Below, piece by piece: positions 2,848-56,013 of a stretch of 64,000 nt of DNA. The notes beneath the pieces are model-generated. The model was not told the origin of the DNA and searched no databases. It worked only from the letters and a program-made list of their open reading frames with translations. This stretch comes from an uncultured bacterium (GTDB taxonomy: Bacteria; Babelota; Babeliae; Babelales; Vermiphilaceae). How positions within the stretch are numbered: position 1 is the first letter of the stretch; each line of letters begins with the position of its first letter. A program made the position numbers and the translations under genes. Where the stretch lies: the NCBI GenBank assembly GCA_963701085.1, contig OY969561.1, forward strand, positions 480,001 to 544,000. The letters run 5' to 3'.

Positions 2848-2876
2848 GATCCTATCCCTAAATTAAATTCCCTCCC

Positions 2877-2935
2877 CGCGCTCGCCCTGAACCTGTTGAA
2901 GGGTTTTCTTCGAGCGCTCGGAAAAAACCCTTCAA
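2877..2935. repeat. Palindromic repeat family A (variant with central TCGAGCGCTCG)
   Basis: CGCGCTCGCCCTGAACCTGTTGAAGGG...TCGAGCGCTCG; matches copies at 42763 and 44146. Confidence 0.85.
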
Positions 2936-10624: not shown

Positions 10625-10720
10625 AACATTACCCCCTTTTTTAACAACATTGCTAACTGTAATTTTACAACAATGTCATGAGAAAAAGCTAGATTTAGCA
10701 TAATTTTCAAAAAAACACCC

Positions 10721-10786
10721 CCGCTCGCCCTGAGCCTGTCGAAGGGAAAAGCGCTCTAATATTTCAACAAGTTCAATATGAGCGCA
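10721..10786. repeat. Palindromic repeat family A, inverted pair with degenerate right arm
   Basis: CCGCTCGCCCTGAGCCTGTCGAAGGG...TTCAACAAGTTCAATATGAGCG. Confidence 0.85.
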
Positions 10787-10889
10787 AATTCAACATGATT
10801 TGCAAAAAAATGTGTGGTATACTAAAGTATCTGCAAGTAATAATGATGCATAAGCACTCTCTGCTACCAATAGTTTTTTAGGTAATATA

Positions 10890-11983: not shown

Positions 11984-12057
11984 CCGTTCGTGCTGAGCCT
12001 GTCGAAGCATATGAACTAAATTATGTTCGCTCACTTCGACAAGCTCAGTGCGAACGG
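11984..12057. repeat. Palindromic repeat family A, complete inverted pair between convergent genes
   Basis: CCGTTCGTGCTGAGCCTGTCGAAGCA...CTTCGACAAGCTCAGTGCGAACGG. Confidence 0.9.
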
Positions 12058-12114
12058 GATTGGAAAATACCTGCACAAACAAAGTTTTTTTACGTTCGCA
12101 CGAACGTAAAGGGA

Positions 12115-15714: not shown

Positions 15715-17129
15715 CTATTCTATTTGCGATGCTTTAACACCATTCTTTGTTGTCAACATTGAAACTAAATTTTCAAGACCAATTGCATGCGATCCTTTAA
15801 CCAAAATAGCTGGTTTTGCATCGAGCTCACTTTCAATTTTTTGTGCAGCTTCTTGCCATGATCCAACTACTTCAACACGTAGTCCCACTGGTGCTGTTTT
15901 TTTAACCCAAGCAACCAAGTTGCCCACTAAAATAACTTTATTTAATGAAGGAACTTTACGCAGGAAGCGCCCTACTTGTCTATGCCAAAAAGGACTATTA
16001 ACACCTAATCCAAGCATATCACCAAGAATAGCAATTTTTGGTGACTTTGTCTCTATTTGTTGAAACGCCAACAATGCCGCCTTCATACTCTCTGGATTAG
16101 CATTATAACAATCATTAATTAAGGTGCCACGATCACCATTCACCAAGCGCTCTTCAAAGCGACCTTCAACAACGCATGGCTTTTGAATCGCTTTAATAAT
16201 AATGTCATCAGAAACACCCAACCAATGAGCCGCAGCTGTTGCAGCAAGAGCATTAAAAACTGCTCCAATATGCGGGTGATCCAAAACAATGGAATGTTTA
16301 TTTTTATATATTTTAAGCATAAAGCTAATATGGGCTCCGGATACTCTCATTTTTCGTGCTTGAATCTGATTTGTCGTCTTTGATCCAAACTTAATCACCG
16401 GATGCTGATAAGAAACACTGGCAAGAATTGGCTGATCACCATTAATAATACCAATGCTATTTTCAGTGAAGTATTTAAAAACATCACGTTTTTCAAGCGC
16501 AATATCATTGAGTGACCCAAGACCATCCATATGCTGATGACCAATATTGGTAATTACCGCAGACGTTGGACGTAATAAATGAGAAAGCTCAGCCATTTCC
16601 CCACGTTTACTAATACCAAGTTCAAAAATAGCCAATTCGTGATCCGTTCTCATGCGAAGCATATTTAATGCAAGGCCAATTTTTGTATTTTGATTTCCAT
16701 GAGAAACAAGATATTTTTTGCCTGCATGCGTCATAATTTGAGCAAGCATTTCTTTGGTAGAAGTTTTTCCAACTGATCCAGTAATAGCAATAACTGGATA
16801 ATCAAACTGTGAACGCCAATGTGGCAGCAAGTTGAACAAGCGCCTCAAGAGGATCTTTAACCAACAAGAACTAACTTAGATTCAAGCCCTTTAATTGTGC
16901 TGAGAACATCTTTTTTTGATTCAGCAATAATCACTCCTGCTGCACCCTTTGCAAATGCTTGCGCAACAAAATCATGCCCATCACAATCAGCGCCTTTTAG
17001 AGCAACAAAAATATCTCCCGCTTGCATCCCACGTGAATCAATAGAGAATGTTGCATTCTCTGGAAAGTGCCCGAATGCAATCGACACTTCAGGCAATGTT
17101 TTAGTTATAAAAGAGCTGTCAAATCGCAT
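15715..17129 (-). CDS. murF: UDP-MurNAc-tripeptide:D-Ala-D-Ala ligase MurF, frameshifted near 16820-16865
   Basis: N part IDSR...DIFVALKG...DGHDF; C part AITGSVGKTSTKE, NDCYNANPESM, LGDMLGLG, LVKGS; two apparent 1-base insertions at the junction. Confidence 0.9.
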
Positions 17130-17283
17130 TGATAATCTCCGTTGAAAATAAAAAATACTACTACACCCAAATCTATATAAAAAAACTATTATATGTGCTG
17201 CTAAACGTTCGTCTAATGGCACTAAGATCTCTTTTTTTTTAACATTTGTCAAGGAACGCAGGATAAAGTAATAAGATAATATG

Positions 17284-19716
17284 TTAACGAATTACTTTTC
17301 TTGTCTTTCCCCCATCCTGCGGCATAATGAGTCCTTGAGACTCAAGCATATCAATAATACGCGCTGATCTATTATAACCAATGCGAAACTTTCTTTGCAG
17401 TAGGGAAATAGAGATTTCATCAATCTCATTTAAAAAATTACGAATATCATCATATAAAACATCATCTAGTGTTGCTCCATCTTGCCCTTGCAATGATGTC
17501 ATCTGATGCATATCAAGATATTCAACTTTTCTTTGCTGCCTAATATGATCCGCAACCTGCTCAATTTCTTGATCAGAAACATATGCTCCATGTACTCGTC
17601 TTAATTGTGATGTTGCCGCATCAAGAAACAGCATATCGCCCCTACCTAATAAACGATCAGCTCCCATTGTATCTAAAATAGTACGGGAATCAATACGTGA
17701 TGCAACTCTGAATGATATTCTACTCGGAAAGTTTGCTTTAATTAAACCGGTAATCACATCAACCGAAGGCCGCTGTGTTGCAACAATCATATGAATTCCC
17801 GCTGCACGTGCCATTTGCGTAATACGAGTAATAAGATCTTCAATATCACGCCCGGCGGTAATCATCAAATCCGCCAACTCATCAATCACCACCACAATAA
17901 ATGGCAACATACTTGTTTTCTTAGTTCATCATCCGCGCTCATTCTGAATCTGTTGCAAAATCGCGTATTATAATCCCCAATATTACGCGCGCCACATTTT
18001 GCCATTTTTTCATAACGTTCTTCCATTTCTTGCACCACCCAACGCAACACGGGAGCTGCATGTGCGGGACTCGTGACAATAGGAAACAACAAATGTGCAA
18101 TATCGGTAAATGCGGCAAACTCTAATCGTTTAGGATCTATCAAAATAAGTTTAAGTTCATCGGGGCTTAATTTACATAACAAACTTATCAAAATGGCATT
18201 AATGCTACCGATTTTCCTGATCCTGTTGAACCTGCAATCAAAAGATGTGGCATACGTGCTAAATCAACAACCACAGCCTCTCCAATGGTGCCCTTACCAA
18301 GAACAAGCGGCAAACTACCAGAAAACTGTTGCGTATACTGGAGATGTTGCCACTTGTGAAAACAGTACATCATTACGCGTTGTATTTGCAACTTCAAACC
18401 CAACAACTGATCTTCCAGGAATTGGCGCAATAATACGAATACTCATCGCTTGCAACGCCATAGCAAGATCATCTTCCAGCGCAATAATTTTACTCAATTT
18501 TGTATCAATATCCGGTTGATATTCAAACAACGTCACAACAGGCCCACGCTTAATGGCAACCACTTCACCATGTAACCCCAAACCGTTTTAATTTATCTTG
18601 CAAAACTTGTGCACGCTCTTGTAACTCTTTTTCAACATTACGATCTTCTTTAATGTCTTTCTCAGCAATAAAAATATCCATGTGCGGCAATGCGTATCGT
18701 GAAGTTTTTTTAGATATGGTTGGCAATTGCTTTTCATGCTTTGCTTTTTGCACACGCACGGAAGCTGTATATTCACTCATATCATTATTCACTTTCTTAT
18801 CCACTGCATGCCTCAATGATATTAATGGAGGCACAAGATTTAGCTTCAATCTACTGACTTTGTTCTTTCGCGCTCGTCCTGAACTTGTTGAAGGATATCC
18901 TCGAGCGCCAGAATATAAAACCACGTAATTTATTGATACTTCATCAAACTGAATCTCATCCGACCGGTCAGCGTCCCATTGCTGCCCAAAGTCATAATCA
19001 TCGTCAGGATGTAACAAACCTGTCTCATCAAATGCCTCACCATCAAGTAACGATTGAACAAAATGTACAAAAAACCTTGGCATCTTCAAAAAAACAGCAT
19101 ACATACATACGCCAACAGCATGCACCGTTTTGCTGACAACATGATATTTGCACATCAATGCATACGCGGCCAAAACCGCCCACATGGCATACTGAAACAA
19201 AAACATAAATGACCAACGGAATAATAAAATAAAACTCGCGCAGAGGCTACTATATAAAAATAACATGCGTCCAATGGGGTCAAAATAATAAACAAGTGCG
19301 TTTGCAAAGCGTAAGCCTACCATCCCACCCGGATAAGGACTTACGGCAACATCCATAGAATAAGCAGCCAGCAATGCAGCACCAACAAATACTAAATATA
19401 CAGAAGCAAACAAGCGTTCCCATTCATTTTTCATTGATTTTTGGGTAAAAAAAATGAATCCCCCACATAATAATGGAATCAATAGTAAAAAAGATGCCCC
19501 TCCAAAAAGGTAAAAAAGTATTGCTGCGAATTGCGCACCAAGAAAACCACCTGTGTTGGTGATAGCTTCCGGATCACTTGAAATATATAACCATGAACTA
19601 TCAGTCACGTTATATGAAACAAGAGACACTACCAAAAAAATAATGGTTGCCGTATAAAAAATAGCACCACCATACCAAAACGTCCTATTTTTTTCATGAA
19701 AAAACCTGTTCATCAA
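17284..19716 (-). CDS. ftsK: DNA translocase FtsK (4TM N-domain, motor, gamma), split by several frameshifts
   Basis: Fragments in order: TM region, [71 protein letters not shown]. Confidence 0.93.
18869..18908. repeat. Family A repeat in-frame inside ftsK linker
   Basis: CGCGCTCGTCCTGAACTTGTTGAAGGATATCCTCGAGCGC encodes [14 protein letters not shown]. Confidence 0.85.
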
Positions 19717-22198: not shown

Positions 22199-22210
22199 GC
22201 TTTTGACCCT

Positions 22211-22382
22211 CCTCCTACGCCAAGGCTTCGGCGGACAGGCAATTTTCATTACGCTTCAGTCGGGGACCCCATTATCCTTCGATACATTTTTGAAGACAAA
22301 AACACTCAGGATGAGCGGAAGAAAAAATAATTTGTACCTTACGCCGCTCGCCCTGAGTGCCCCGTAGGGGCGTATCAAAGGG
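22211..22382. repeat. Repeat cluster: family B unit (22211-22240), GGGGACCCC motif, two family A units with hairpin-expanded loops
   Basis: CCTCCTACGCCAAGGCTTCGGCGGACAGGC; TCCTTCGATACA..CACTCAGGATGAGCGG; CCGCTCGCCCTGAGTGCCCCGTAGGGGCGTATC. Confidence 0.85.
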
Positions 22383-24343: not shown

Positions 24344-25231
24344 TTATTTTGTACATTCATAGACAACAGTATCATCATACATAGATGGCGTACCCGTACG
24401 ATCATAAGCTTTTATTTTTTTTATCTGCTTAAAACCAACCTCTCCAAGCAAAGCATCCATCTCTCCCGGTTGATAAAGTTTAATAGGATAATACTCCATT
24501 TCCGTTTTAAGTATTTCGGTTCTACTCATAAGCTCATAGCGTAATATTAATGGTGCTACTGAATTTTCTATGGGAAGAGGAAGTACGCTCTCAATAATAA
24601 TATTTCCATCAGGTCTTTTATACGCTTTTCCACTCCATAAACCAATATGTTCTGCTCGTGAATGATTTGTCTGAAGATCAAGAACAAAAATACCTCCCTT
24701 CTGCAATAATGCATATATTCTTTGTAAACACTTTTTGATATGCACTCGATCCTGAAAAATGCAAAATGAGGTATCAGGAATAAAAATAAGATTATACTTT
24801 TTTGCCTGTCCGACGAAGCCTTGCCTGCGCTTTGAAGCCTTGGCGAAAGAGGGGCGAAGTAGGGGAGCAGGGGCTACTTCCAAAAACTGCTCCCACACAT
24901 GAGGAGAAAGTTTTTTTTGCGCGCATTTGCTACGTAGCGCATGCAACATATGCGATGAAGCATCAAATCCTTCTACGTTAAATCCTTCTTCCAACAATGG
25001 AATCAAATAACGTCCCGTTCCACACATTGGTTCTAAAATTGGCCCCGATGATTGCGCAACATATTCCCGAAAAAAAGCATATTCTTTGACTGGCGGCTTT
25101 GGTTTATCAAGGTCCCAAAATTCAGTACACAATCCTTTATACTGTGGCAAACTTAACTCATTCTTAGCATAGCAATGCATAACTAAAAAAAAGACCATCA
25201 ATAAACTTATACGGTGCTTTTTCATAACCAT
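24344..25231 (-). CDS. Class I SAM-dependent methyltransferase with signal peptide and in-frame repeat insert
   Basis: ILEPMCGTGR, VEGFDAS, LLQKGGIFVLD; insert APAPLLRPSFAKASKRRQGFVGQAKK. Confidence 0.88.
   Translation of the reverse strand: MVMKKHRISLLMVFFLVMHCYAKNELSLPQYKGLCTEFWDLDKPKPPVKEYAFFREYVAQSSGPILEPMCGTGRYLIPLLEEGFNVEGFDASSHMLHALRSKCAQKKLSPHVWEQFLEVAPAPLLRPSFAKASKRRQGFVGQAKKYNLIFIPDTSFCIFQDRVHIKKCLQRIYALLQKGGIFVLDLQTNHSRAEHIGLWSGKAYKRPDGNIIIESVLPLPIENSVAPLILRYELMSRTEILKTEMEYYPIKLYQPGEMDALLGEVGFKQIKKIKAYDRTGTPSMYDDTVVYECTK
24804..24865. repeat. Nested family B repeat inside methyltransferase CDS
   Basis: GCCTGTCCGACGAAGCCTTG[...TGAAGCCTTGGCGAAAGAG...]GCGAAGTAGGGG. Confidence 0.75.
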
Positions 25232-54490: not shown

Positions 54491-55810
54491 TCACTGCGCA
54501 ACCCACATACCCGTAAAATCTTGTGCTACAACACCATCAAGTTGTAAGTTAAACAGCTCATTTTGAACTAATTCAGACGTTAATTGTGTGCGCATGATAA
54601 TATCATCAAAAGAAGTTGGCTGCTTACATGCTGCGATAATTTGTTTTTGCTGCTCAGAGCAATGCTCCTCCTTCGCCAAGGCTTCGGCGGACAGGGCATA
54701 CTTATTATCATCACTTTTTATATCAGTTTTTTGCGCTGCAACAAAAGTATGCAGCGTTAACTGCGCTGCTTTATCTCGAATTTTCTGCCTATCAGGCAGC
54801 ACAAGCCTGTCACCAAATTCAGTCAAAATATCGGCGCTGTTCATGACAAGTTTTGCACCATTTTGAATTAACGCATTGCACCCAGCACTCAATTCACTGT
54901 CAAATGGCCCCGGGACAGCAAACACTTCTCTGCCTTGTTCCATTGCATAATGCGCTGATATGAGTGCACCACTTTTTTGTGCTGCTTGAACAACCAAACA
55001 TCCGTGTGACAGTCCGGTAATGATACGATTGCGCGCAGGGAAATTTCCAGGGAGCCCTTCCATGGTTAATGGAAACGCGCTCACTACCAACCCGCCCCGA
55101 TCAACAATAGATTCGAATAATTTTTTATTTGAAACTGGATACACATTTAATAATCCGGAACCAAGCACTGCAATAGTTTTGCCACCATGATCTAATGTTG
55201 CTTGATGCGCCATGGTATCGATACCACGGGCACCACCGCTGACAATGGTATAGTGTGCGGCAACAAGATCCGGTACTAATGCATTAACAGCATGCTGCCC
55301 ATAATTATCCGCTTTACGCGCACCAACAATTGCAAGTAATTTTGAGGATAAACCCTCTTTATAATTACTCTGATTTTTTCCTGTGCGCTCGCCCTGAACT
55401 TGTTGAAGGGTATCTTGGAGCGCGCTTAATCCTTCAACAGGTTCAGGATGAGCGCGGAAAGAAGCAATACCATGTGCCACAGATAACACACCTTGCGCGT
55501 AAATCACTGCCGGAGCCAAATAAATTTCACGCAGCAACGCGGGATACGTATCATCTTCAACAGTTGCCCATTGAATGTTGTGACGTTCAATTAAATCAAG
55601 TTCGTAATCGAGAATTTTTTTATTCTGCAGACCATCAGACAATTTTTGCGCAGTAAGTTCAGTGAACCCACACGTGCGCATCCAGTCTGATGCAGAAAAG
55701 AGATAAAGATCTGATACCGAAATATCAGATCTTTCTAGAATTCTTTGAATAATTGCAGGGCCAATATTTTCTATTAATGTGAGGTGGAGAATAAAATTTT
55801 TGTTATGCAT
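54491..55810 (-). CDS. dprA: DNA-processing protein DprA with two in-frame repeat-derived inserts
   Basis: AIVGAR, VSGGARGIDTMAH, FPARNRIITGLS, SGALISA, GREVFAVPG; true start likely MHNKNF at 55810. Confidence 0.95.
   Translation of the reverse strand: MHNKNFILHLTLIENIGPAIIQRILERSDISVSDLYLFSASDWMRTCGFTELTAQKLSDGLQNKKILDYELDLIERHNIQWATVEDDTYPALLREIYLAPAVIYAQGVLSVAHGIASFRAHPEPVEGLSALQDTLQQVQGERTGKNQSNYKEGLSSKLLAIVGARKADNYGQHAVNALVPDLVAAHYTIVSGGARGIDTMAHQATLDHGGKTIAVLGSGLLNVYPVSNKKLFESIVDRGGLVVSAFPLTMEGLPGNFPARNRIITGLSHGCLVVQAAQKSGALISAHYAMEQGREVFAVPGPFDSELSAGCNALIQNGAKLVMNSADILTEFGDRLVLPDRQKIRDKAAQLTLHTFVAAQKTDIKSDDNKYALSAEALAKEEHCSEQQKQIIAACKQPTSFDDIIMRTQLTSELVQNELFNLQLDGVVAQDFTGMWVAQ
54667..54696. 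repeat. Family B repeat in-frame in dprA
   Basis: CCTCCTTCGCCAAGGCTTCGGCGGACAGGG, near-identical to intergenic 22211-22240; encodes LSAEALAKEE. Confidence 0.9.
55385..55456. repeat. Family A inverted pair in-frame in dprA
   Basis: GCGCTCGCCCTGAACTTGTTGAAGGG..TCCTTCAACAGGTTCAGGATGAGCGC; encodes RAHPEPVEGLSALQDTLQQVQGER. Confidence 0.9.
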
Positions 55811-55829
55811 ATATCTTTTGATGTTTGCA

Positions 55830-56013
55830 CCCTTCGATACATCCCTACGGGACACTCAGGGCGAGCGGTTGGGTATATAATCTTTTGTCTTCCGCTCATC
55901 CTGAGTGTTTCGTCTTCGAAATGTATCGAAGGATCAGGGCGAGCGGTTAGGCAATATAATCTTTTTCTTCCAGTCATCCTGAGTGTTTTTGTCCTCAAAA
56001 ACGTATCGAAGGA
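55830..56013. repeat. Family A cluster between gyrA and dprA, overlapping the gyrA stop
   Basis: Alternating CCTTCGATACA..CACTCAGG and CATCCTGAGTG..TATCGAAGGA units. Confidence 0.88.

Follow-up and report, generated by a model that had tools for sequence, protein, structure and literature searches.

Palindromic repeats that are read in frame within genes are best known as a textbook oddity of Rickettsia, and to our knowledge the means by which they spread has never been found. We describe comparable repeats in Dependentiae (Babeliales), which are intracellular parasites of protists. The window analyzed here is a stretch of 64,000 nt (contig OY969561.1 of assembly GCA_963701085.1, positions 480,001 to 544,000) from an uncultured bacterium of the family Vermiphilaceae, whose genome is a single contig of 1,198,634 bp with 37.1% G+C. 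The dprA gene of this window (54491..55810, minus strand) carries two inserts, each an in-frame copy of a short hairpin repeat that is GC-rich and poor in stops; the two repeat families are referred to below as A and B. The likeliest origin of these inserts is that the repeats belong to miniature cassettes built around a gene for a GIY-YIG nuclease.

The closest described systems are the following. Rickettsia palindromic elements (RPEs; Ogata et al. 2000, 2002, summarised in PMC10969869) are dispersed palindromes of an intracellular bacterium that lie both between genes and in frame within unrelated housekeeping genes, add peptide segments at positions compatible with the fold, and have no known transposase. 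GTAG- and CGTC-tagged repetitive extragenic palindromes (REPs) are short stem-loops, mostly in head-to-head dimers, that also occur inside genes; many intragenic copies are found in genes for DNA synthesis and repair, tRNA synthetases and TruB, and the CGTC type, which includes RPE-4 and RPE-6, has no dedicated transposase (Di Nocera, De Gregorio, Rocco 2013, PMC3733652). Ssn is a single-domain GIY-YIG nuclease of ~100 aa whose gene is flanked on both sides by a multicopy hairpin repeat; its authors describe the layout NTS-ssnA-NTS as resembling an insertion sequence (IS) and report enrichment in the symbionts Rickettsia and Wolbachia (Chenal et al. 2025, PMC11893778). Lastly, in the REPIN-RAYT system a hairpin exists as a singlet and as an inverted, mobile doublet, and its units flank the gene for the enzyme (Bertels and Rainey 2011, PMC3116915; PMC3337134).

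What do the dprA inserts consist of? The first is a family A element of 76 nt (55384..55459; nhmmer E 1e-22), a head-to-head doublet of two ~40-nt stem-loop units that is translated in frame as FRAHPEPVEGLSALQDTLQQVQGERT. Its 25-nt arms (55385-55409 and 55431-55455) are 88% complementary and 21 nt apart. Each half also folds singly as a stem-loop (−9.0 and −9.8 kcal/mol as DNA, z −2.8 to −3.2), and the mRNA-sense hairpin of the whole element reaches −41.5 kcal/mol (z −5.1). In a codon alignment, the element lies midway in ~45 extra codons between VIYAQG and AIVGARK, at the junction of the N-terminal and Rossmann domains (aa 111-155; 55346..55480, minus strand), of which ~26-30 are the element itself. 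Most orthologues lack this segment, which maps between residues 102 and 108 of S. pneumoniae DprA (3uqz). Indeed, a tblastn-type match to this DprA splits in all 10 congeners into residues 1-~110 and ~154-438, skipping ~108-155. Among 121 DprA homologues (this protein and the best 120 of 6354 at E<=1e-20), the junction segment measures 22-23 aa in 74, compared with 65 aa here. The second insert is a family B unit of 30 nt (54666..54695; nhmmer E 4e-9) with an exact 21-nt core. It writes the codons ALSAEALAKEE (aa 372-382; 54665..54697, minus strand) in the linker before the winged helix, where NKY-ALSAEALAKEE-HCS stands opposite DKY-S-(H/N)YS in congeners G002 and G007; the net gain of 10 codons, 30 nt, equals the length of the B unit. 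Neither unit is found at these dprA sites in most orthologues.

These results uphold the core of the original prediction, made from the letters alone, that two dispersed and mutually unrelated repeats sit in frame in DprA and add peptide segments to it: the gene is intact, and the alignment with orthologues that lack the inserts gives a junction gap in 10/10 congeners and 30 extra linker nucleotides relative to G002 and G007. The details shift slightly. The full inverted A pair is present with an extent of 55384-55459 instead of 55385-55456, the B unit is at 54666-54695 instead of 54667-54696, and the insert before AIVGAR comprises ~45 extra codons, not 35-40.

The gene has not decayed and, in a predicted model, its product folds as DprA. 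It encodes 439 aa from the ATG at 55810 (stop included in the coordinates; the ORF spans 54491-55855), and this start agrees with 11 orthologues. The protein matches Pfam DNA_processg_A at E 4.9e-70 (235.4 bits, threshold 29.6), the winged helix family DprA_WH at 23.4 bits (cut-off 22.9), and, by phmmer, S. pneumoniae DprA 3uqz at 3.4e-42. In an alignment of 115 rows, consisting of this DprA and 114 of the 120 homologues (the short P0057, P0061, P0085, P0088, P0092 and P0100 were excluded), it keeps 43/43 invariant columns and the nearly invariant columns too. The AlphaFold2 model built on this alignment has a mean pLDDT of 87.6 and a pTM of 0.73, and Foldseek aligns it with 3maj (3e-24) and 3uqz_B (TMt 0.87, rmsd 2.8). 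Blocks flanking the inserts have pLDDT values of 94-98, compared with 46-57 across residues 111-150; values fall below 50 at 115-126, 138-151 and 361-369, and the B peptide is modelled as a short helix (375-382) after the last of these stretches. Mapped on structure, as far as a predicted model of DprA alone can serve, both inserts lie in low-confidence loops between confidently folded domains. DprA is probably an unchanged core with two extra, flexible surface segments, and would still work with them.

It is highly improbable that the inserts are missing from the protein, either because dprA is a young pseudogene or because they are removed from the RNA or protein. The fragmentation of the nearby genes ftsK and murF fits such decay, but the dprA frame is open over its 439 codons with every invariant column kept, no self-splicing intron or intein is known that comes near lengths as short as 76 and 30 nt, and neither insert has an Rfam match. 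No contig joins across either insert in four DNA runs, which offer short contigs only. In the sister protein P0001 (95% identity across conserved columns), the junction holds a half A into which a B is nested, and the linker holds the same B; hence, both inserts are older than that split. Nor is the A insert an assembly artefact, since short contigs from other public runs reproduce it with zero mismatches, over 55357-55507 (the insert and its two junctions) and over 55254-55404 (the left junction); one of these runs is possibly the source sample.

Both families are dispersed throughout the genome. A 96-nt query around the dprA arms gave 192 high-scoring segment pairs by blastn-short, and a 66-nt query around 54667-54696 gave 55. 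Iterated nhmmer searches returned 194 A matches, which collapse into 104 loci (46 full copies of 65 nt or more and 58 partial ones); for B, the number of loci is 93. Neither model matches the reversed genome. Within the window, the 17-nt A core is found at 11 places when up to 3 mismatches are allowed (0.19 expected), a count reached in 0/100 shuffles, and the 21-nt B core occurs twice against 0.00 expected. Family A is a near-perfect palindrome of 76-80 nt and B a 30-nt unit with a weak hairpin; four of the six frames of the A consensus are open and all six of B. When genes are approximated crudely by 1086 non-overlapping ORFs (minimum 90 aa, together 86% of the genome), the A loci divide into 71 intergenic, 24 inside ORFs and 9 at ORF edges, and the B loci into 50, 41 and 2, respectively.

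Pfam searches of 51 host ORFs identified copies that lie inside recognised domains or are flanked by them. Family A occupies residues 330-356 of RecD2 and 267-293 of a Mur ligase. Family B is found in a PBP transpeptidase (423-433), CysS (333-342), UvrD/PcrA (675-684), an M17 aminopeptidase (106-115), PheT (284-294), an M3 peptidase (600-610) and PriA (140-149), with two units in DnaX (507-522). Further internal copies are at the C-terminal tails of their host ORFs. The RecD2 insert is missing in 10/10 congeners, in which the two pieces of the match abut, so it was inserted after speciation; CysS is 13 codons longer than in G005 and G007. Hosts of internal copies (L044-L094) are rich, by raw counts, in replication, repair and recombination genes, namely those for DprA, RecD2, UvrD/PcrA, PriA, DnaX, an ATP-dependent ligase and FtsK, and in translation genes, namely those for CysS, PheT, TruB and Pth. 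A bias toward element lengths that preserve the frame, a check suggested with the original prediction, appears as a weak excess in ORFs: the A core is a multiple of three in 8/15 in-ORF full copies and 6/25 intergenic ones (Fisher p 0.09), and several of the in-ORF copies are near N-termini.

Insertion is clade-wide as well as genome-wide. Using peptide signatures for A (PE(P/L)VEG, LQQVQGER, LSLSK), B (SAEALAKEE, PPKLSAKE, LLRQGFEG), C (PECPEGVYRR) and D (PDPSIH), modules were found in 36/121 DprA homologues, 11 of which have them at two or more places. Three sites are used: 17 homologues have a module at the junction, 27 in the linker and 5 in an N-terminal-domain loop. At the DNA level, the junction of G007 dprA contains a half A read in the same frame and its linker contains a full A, G003 dprA has a variant half A in a different frame, and G009 dprA has a B unit in the N-terminal loop. 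On a FastTree phylogeny of DprA that omits the insert columns (a rapid tree in which many forks are weak, and on which changes were not split into gain and loss), the minimum count of state changes comes close to the count of carriers: 5 for 6 carriers of junction A, 14 for 17 of linker A, 9 for 10 of linker B, 7 for 7 of C and 5 for 5 of N-terminal B. Module presence differs even between very close homologues.

Where do the repeats come from? Families A and B are not orphan repeats; they are the end modules of cassettes for small GIY-YIG nucleases. The genome encodes five small GIY-YIG ORFs (PF01541 above cut-off, 84-127 codons) and one UvrC-like ORF. Three of the five (96-98 aa; genome 1102879-1103166, 231646-231933 and 1091357-1091644) sit between inverted half-A units in cassettes of ~400 bp with A terminal inverted repeats. 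The left unit, corresponding to positions 2-48 of the A model, ends 18-20 nt before the ATG, and the right unit, positions 36-77, starts ~10 nt after the stop. Given this match, the 76-80-nt A element is a pair of units that meet at the central GAGCGC and lack the gene, that is, a gene-less doublet of the terminal inverted repeats of the cassette. The two loop subtypes of A correspond to the inner ends of different cassettes, and the dprA copy is a hybrid. A fourth small nuclease gene (cassette genome 339183-339437) has 54-nt inverted repeats of another type, C, the family that is also the source of PECPEGVYRR in other DprAs. The fifth, a gene of a different subtype, stands between two B units. 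Nested B units are also found in A and C arms, at one fixed position following CCTGA; they take either orientation, and some cassettes have one in each arm (genome 97984, 627323, 778044 and 1130368; L274 and L258), which suggests a preferred target or cut site.

The cassette architecture is conserved in related genomes. Homologues of the A-type nuclease were found in 18/41 of them. Terminal inverted repeats score at least 25 at 21/29 A-type loci (30 were fetched; L265, at a contig end, has no score); they are 31-138 nt long, mostly perfect and near the gene ends. By comparison, 0/150 random ORFs of this genome reach that score (median 8, maximum 14). The A model matches both flanks at 13 loci, and distant nuclease homologues have their own, related arm types, some with B nested in both arms. 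In G181 and G194, which belong to other families, the distance between arm and nuclease gene is 29 and 41 nt. B-type nuclease genes, whose proteins measure 81-84 aa, occur in 24/41 genomes, often in multiple copies; a B unit is within 300 nt of 19/30 such genes, and in 13 it stands 15-54 nt upstream in constant orientation. Across the 41 genomes, the numbers with arm and gene, arm only, gene only and neither are 11, 1, 7 and 22 for A, and the corresponding numbers for the B core are 20, 3, 4 and 14, in both cases inflated by kinship. Also in keeping with nuclease cassettes, this genome has no match to the transposase families PF01797, PF01609, PF00665, PF07282 and PF13358, the only ones searched (as a control, the PF01797 profile was found in 6/14 genomes).

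The same layout could have arisen in reverse, with the palindromes as the primary selfish repeats, moved by an unknown host function or one since lost (the proposal made for RPEs and CGTC-tagged REPs), and the GIY-YIG genes as free-standing, homing-type secondary parasites inserted at the palindrome center, so that cassettes are invaded doublets. Several features point this way. The nuclease gene is exactly at the center of the doublet, and cassette 1 has the 8-nt GAGCGCTC on both sides of the gene segment, as an insertion would leave. Doublets and solo units outnumber cassettes 104 to 3, G005 has arms without a gene, and the weak NCBIfam matches of the nuclease, far below cut-off, are to a group I intron endonuclease model. 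Yet each nuclease subtype keeps its own arm type across genomes, as expected if enzyme and arms co-evolve as a unit; in some genomes, such as G012, where the single A-arm match is 22 nt from the nuclease gene, a solo arm beside that gene is the only copy; and the central duplication varies among the three cassettes (8, ~3 and 0-4 nt). Moreover, the nuclease encoded in the matching layout NTS-ssnA-NTS has been shown to cleave beside its hairpin (PMC11893778). We therefore regard invasion of doublets as the strongest competitor of cassette-derived repeats, and as unlikely.

The repeats extend beyond this genus. In a phylum sample of 261 genomes, all of one order, the A arm (up to 3 mismatches) is present in 33: 9/10 congeners have 17-97 matches each, and outside them the distribution is patchy and the variant GC-richer. 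The exception among the congeners, G001 (95% complete), lacks the A arm, the B core and both GIY-YIG types, in contrast to the nine others. The B core is in 132/261 genomes, and reversed patterns of the A arm and B core gave 0 matches over the whole sample. Outside the phylum, the 17-nt A core occurs 45 times in an Anaerolineales genome (G262), as a hairpin stem inside a larger palindrome (L095, L097), twice in an Omnitrophota metagenome-assembled genome and not at all in three other genomes; the B core has 0 matches in five genomes of other phyla. The Omnitrophota genome has two nuclease homologues, neither adjoining its two A cores. Among viral contigs, 17 stretches with 52-73% G+C contain the B core (~0.1 expected by our own estimate). 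The A core is in at least 130, near a rough chance estimate of roughly 50 derived from an estimated collection size; 117 of 135 viral A cores belong to two of the eight variants and a paired arm accompanies 12, and only these features argue for real copies. The view that this is an independent case of repeats generating protein sequence is only partly right, given A cores in Anaerolineales and viral contigs and B cores in viral contigs.

Retention of the B core in 132/261 genomes with 0 control matches might instead mean that the units serve the host, as a DNA-uptake-type sequence, a nucleoid or regulatory hairpin or an mRNA stabiliser under selection, with the coding copies as by-products. 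The excess of intergenic A loci (71/104, where intergenic DNA makes up only ~14% of the genome) is compatible with such a role, as is the wealth of genome-maintenance genes among the hosts, also seen for intragenic REPs by Di Nocera et al. (PMC3733652). A host-serving signal is nevertheless improbable: about 100 copies per family is low for an uptake signal, presence and absence vary between very close DprA homologues, and the 95% complete congener G001 does without either family. In addition, units lie in both orientations and several frames, with no strand or replichore bias (11/10 and 5/7 for the asymmetry of folding), and Rfam at gathering thresholds finds no family in the window except tRNA.

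Cassette-derived repeats remain the favored explanation of the dprA inserts, and a number of observations weigh against it. First, the cassette architecture fits doublets derived from cassettes as well as it fits a gene invading doublets. G005 has A arms (27 matches) and no A-type nuclease gene at E<=1e-8, and the Anaerolineales genome with 45 cores has no A-type homologue at E<=0.001. With nuclease homologues absent there and apart from the cores in Omnitrophota, no link between enzyme and core is established across phyla. For family B, units stand on both sides of only 3/30 B-type genes. Second, the nearest structure in the Protein Data Bank (PDB) to the A-type nuclease is the UPF0213 protein 1zg2 (E 1.5e-13); membership of the Ssn clade (cd10448), like cutting of single-stranded DNA next to the hairpin, is hypothetical, and the published SRM motif has 0 matches in the genome and 1 in the reversed genome. 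SLX1 (7wme, 2.5e-6) is also among the nearest solved relatives of the small nucleases, and none of the five is assigned to an NCBIfam family. Third, no target-site duplication is seen for A: among 39 full copies, whose ends are known approximately, the best 2-mer occurs 10 times against 4.9 expected over 196 offset pairs scanned, and in the RecD2 comparison of filled and empty sites the junction is too diverged to reveal one. Fourth, for copies in coding sequence, the ORF proxy means that many near-N-terminal copies counted as inside ORFs may precede the true starts, the low pLDDT of the dprA inserts may just stem from thin alignment cover there, and that the mRNA is translated through them is a reading of the intact frame and its conservation.

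How does this system compare with those already described? In behavior it is RPE-like, with dispersal, in-frame insertion into unrelated housekeeping genes, fold-compatible positions (here in the predicted model of DprA only) and no known transposase in common (PMC10969869); in architecture it resembles Ssn/SRM or REPIN-RAYT. The likeness to RPEs is one of behavior, and here the phylum is Babeliales, a nuclease gene lies between the units, and the units are ~40, 76-80 and 30 nt, unlike the ~100-150 bp of RPEs (PMC10969869). As with REPs, stem-loops form head-to-head dimers inside genes, and the hosts DprA, RecD2, UvrD, PriA, DnaX, CysS, PheT and TruB recall those of intragenic REPs (PMC3733652). 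The A arm consensus contains CGTC, as CGTC REPs do, in a comparison made from published descriptions; those REPs have 8-9-bp stems, 4-5-nt loops and the tag outside the stem, whereas A has a split stem of ~10 bp, an 11-nt loop and CGTC inside, and the phylum of Babeliales is not among the five listed in the part of the paper cited (PMC3733652). The small nuclease gene between multicopy hairpins is the Ssn arrangement, but the arms here are 31-138-nt inverted repeats as opposed to units of ~28 nt, the nearest solved relatives are UPF0213 and SLX1 proteins, and in-frame coding copies, found here, are not treated in the cited passages of the Ssn paper (PMC11893778). REP-like singlets and inverted doublets both exist in A, since its halves fold alone and 46 doublets accompany 58 partial copies, as in REPIN-RAYT (PMC3116915; PMC3337134); the enzyme differs, being a GIY-YIG nuclease and not a Y1 HUH transposase (PF01797, 0 in the genome), and the units are often translated. 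Finally, A resembles a miniature inverted-repeat transposable element (MITE) in sharing terminal inverted repeats with a longer parent, which here encodes a nuclease and not a transposase. Nothing on such peptides or repeats in Dependentiae, nor on such GIY-YIG cassettes other than Ssn, was found in the literature searched (supplements aside); the Chromulinavorax paper mentions ankyrin repeats only.

A mechanism can be proposed on this basis. The A unit, a stem-loop of ~40 nt, would be the basic module, an inverted pair of which brackets a 96-98-aa GIY-YIG gene to form the ~400-bp cassette, and the doublet would be its non-autonomous form, standing to the cassette as REPIN does to the RAYT gene or a MITE to an IS. 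The 30-nt B unit accompanies a second, SLX1-like GIY-YIG gene and is often nested in the arms of other families. By acting on the hairpins, the nucleases may promote the copying of units into new locations, which would make them the enzymes that mobilise the units. Copies landing in genes would survive only where the frame is kept, the element is free of stops and the site is a tolerant loop or linker; three such sites in DprA are used repeatedly across the clade. We offer a broader idea more tentatively, as a possibility that is less likely than its alternatives: that hairpin-flanked GIY-YIG cassettes, together with derivatives that have lost the gene, are a widespread kind of mobile element in prokaryotes, with cores that cross phyla and are present in viral contigs, and that in Dependentiae this engine writes loops into essential proteins, at the same three DprA sites in dozens of lineages. 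On that view, the bias to proteins that handle single-stranded DNA (DprA, RecD2, PriA, UvrD) might reflect a nuclease acting on single-stranded intermediates.

Other copies in the window vary in completeness and setting. Intergenic A doublets are complete at 44143..44222 and, with a GC-richer arm variant, at 10718..10787; a complete A-like doublet with CGTTCG-type arms, likewise intergenic, is at 11985..12058, and partial intergenic copies are at 2875..2935 and 42761..42819. Intergenic B units were found by nhmmer at 22210..22239, which has the B core, and at 46474..46503. Three further coding insertions had been proposed. One is an A core remnant (29294..29310) inside ORF 29075-31246, translated as YPEPVEGE. 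In ftsK, the linker encoded by the N-terminal ORF does contain an in-frame half A unit (18868..18916), but the gene as a whole is broken into several ORFs. The methyltransferase ORF (Pfam methyltransferase domains at 57-200) has a B-like unit, PSFAKASK (24830..24852), which is weak (nhmmer E 0.0031).

The ftsK gene occupies at least three ORFs (18565-19716, 17886-18191 and 17284-17910 of the window), murF two (15715-16848 and 16857-17252), and gpmI is also split (genome 914262-914957 and 914991-915995); these are either pseudogenes or assembly indel errors. A D-Ala-D-Ala ligase ORF (genome 1138984-1139610) has the N-terminal domain only and ends within an A element, and the gene may have been truncated by A insertion. 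At least eight A copies adjoin the conserved stretch CCTATCCCTAAACTAATTTTTT or its complement (genome 909776, 363308, 793281, 957697, 208013, 326004, 680243 and 26605), and five others adjoin a stretch with TATAGT; larger composite repeats may exist. The spacer between dprA and gyrA (55811-55994) consists almost entirely of C- and D-type hairpin units, among them a C-type unit at 55829..55870 that is an inverted match to the A arm and corresponds to the terminal inverted repeat of the cassette at 339183-339437. The C and D units of this spacer create a spurious ORF of 74 aa (ARPECPVGMYRRV, ARPDPSIHFEDETLRMSGR).

What are the implications of these repeats? First, RPE-like behavior is now seen in an unrelated and poorly known intracellular phylum, and translated repeats have been traced to nuclease-gene cassettes. 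This connects three literatures, those on RPEs, CGTC-type REPs and Ssn/SRM, and provides a candidate for the missing enzyme: a protein of 96 aa together with a hairpin of 40 nt. Second, dozens of odd Babeliales peptides, PE(P/L)VEG, LQQVQGER, SFAKAS and PECPEGVYRR among them, are repeat-derived, which should serve as a warning for annotation. Third, loops of essential proteins can be remodelled quickly, given that 36/121 DprA homologues carry modules and that near-identical homologues differ. Together, these results add a candidate mechanism for in-frame repeats and a measure of the scale of their effect on one protein family.

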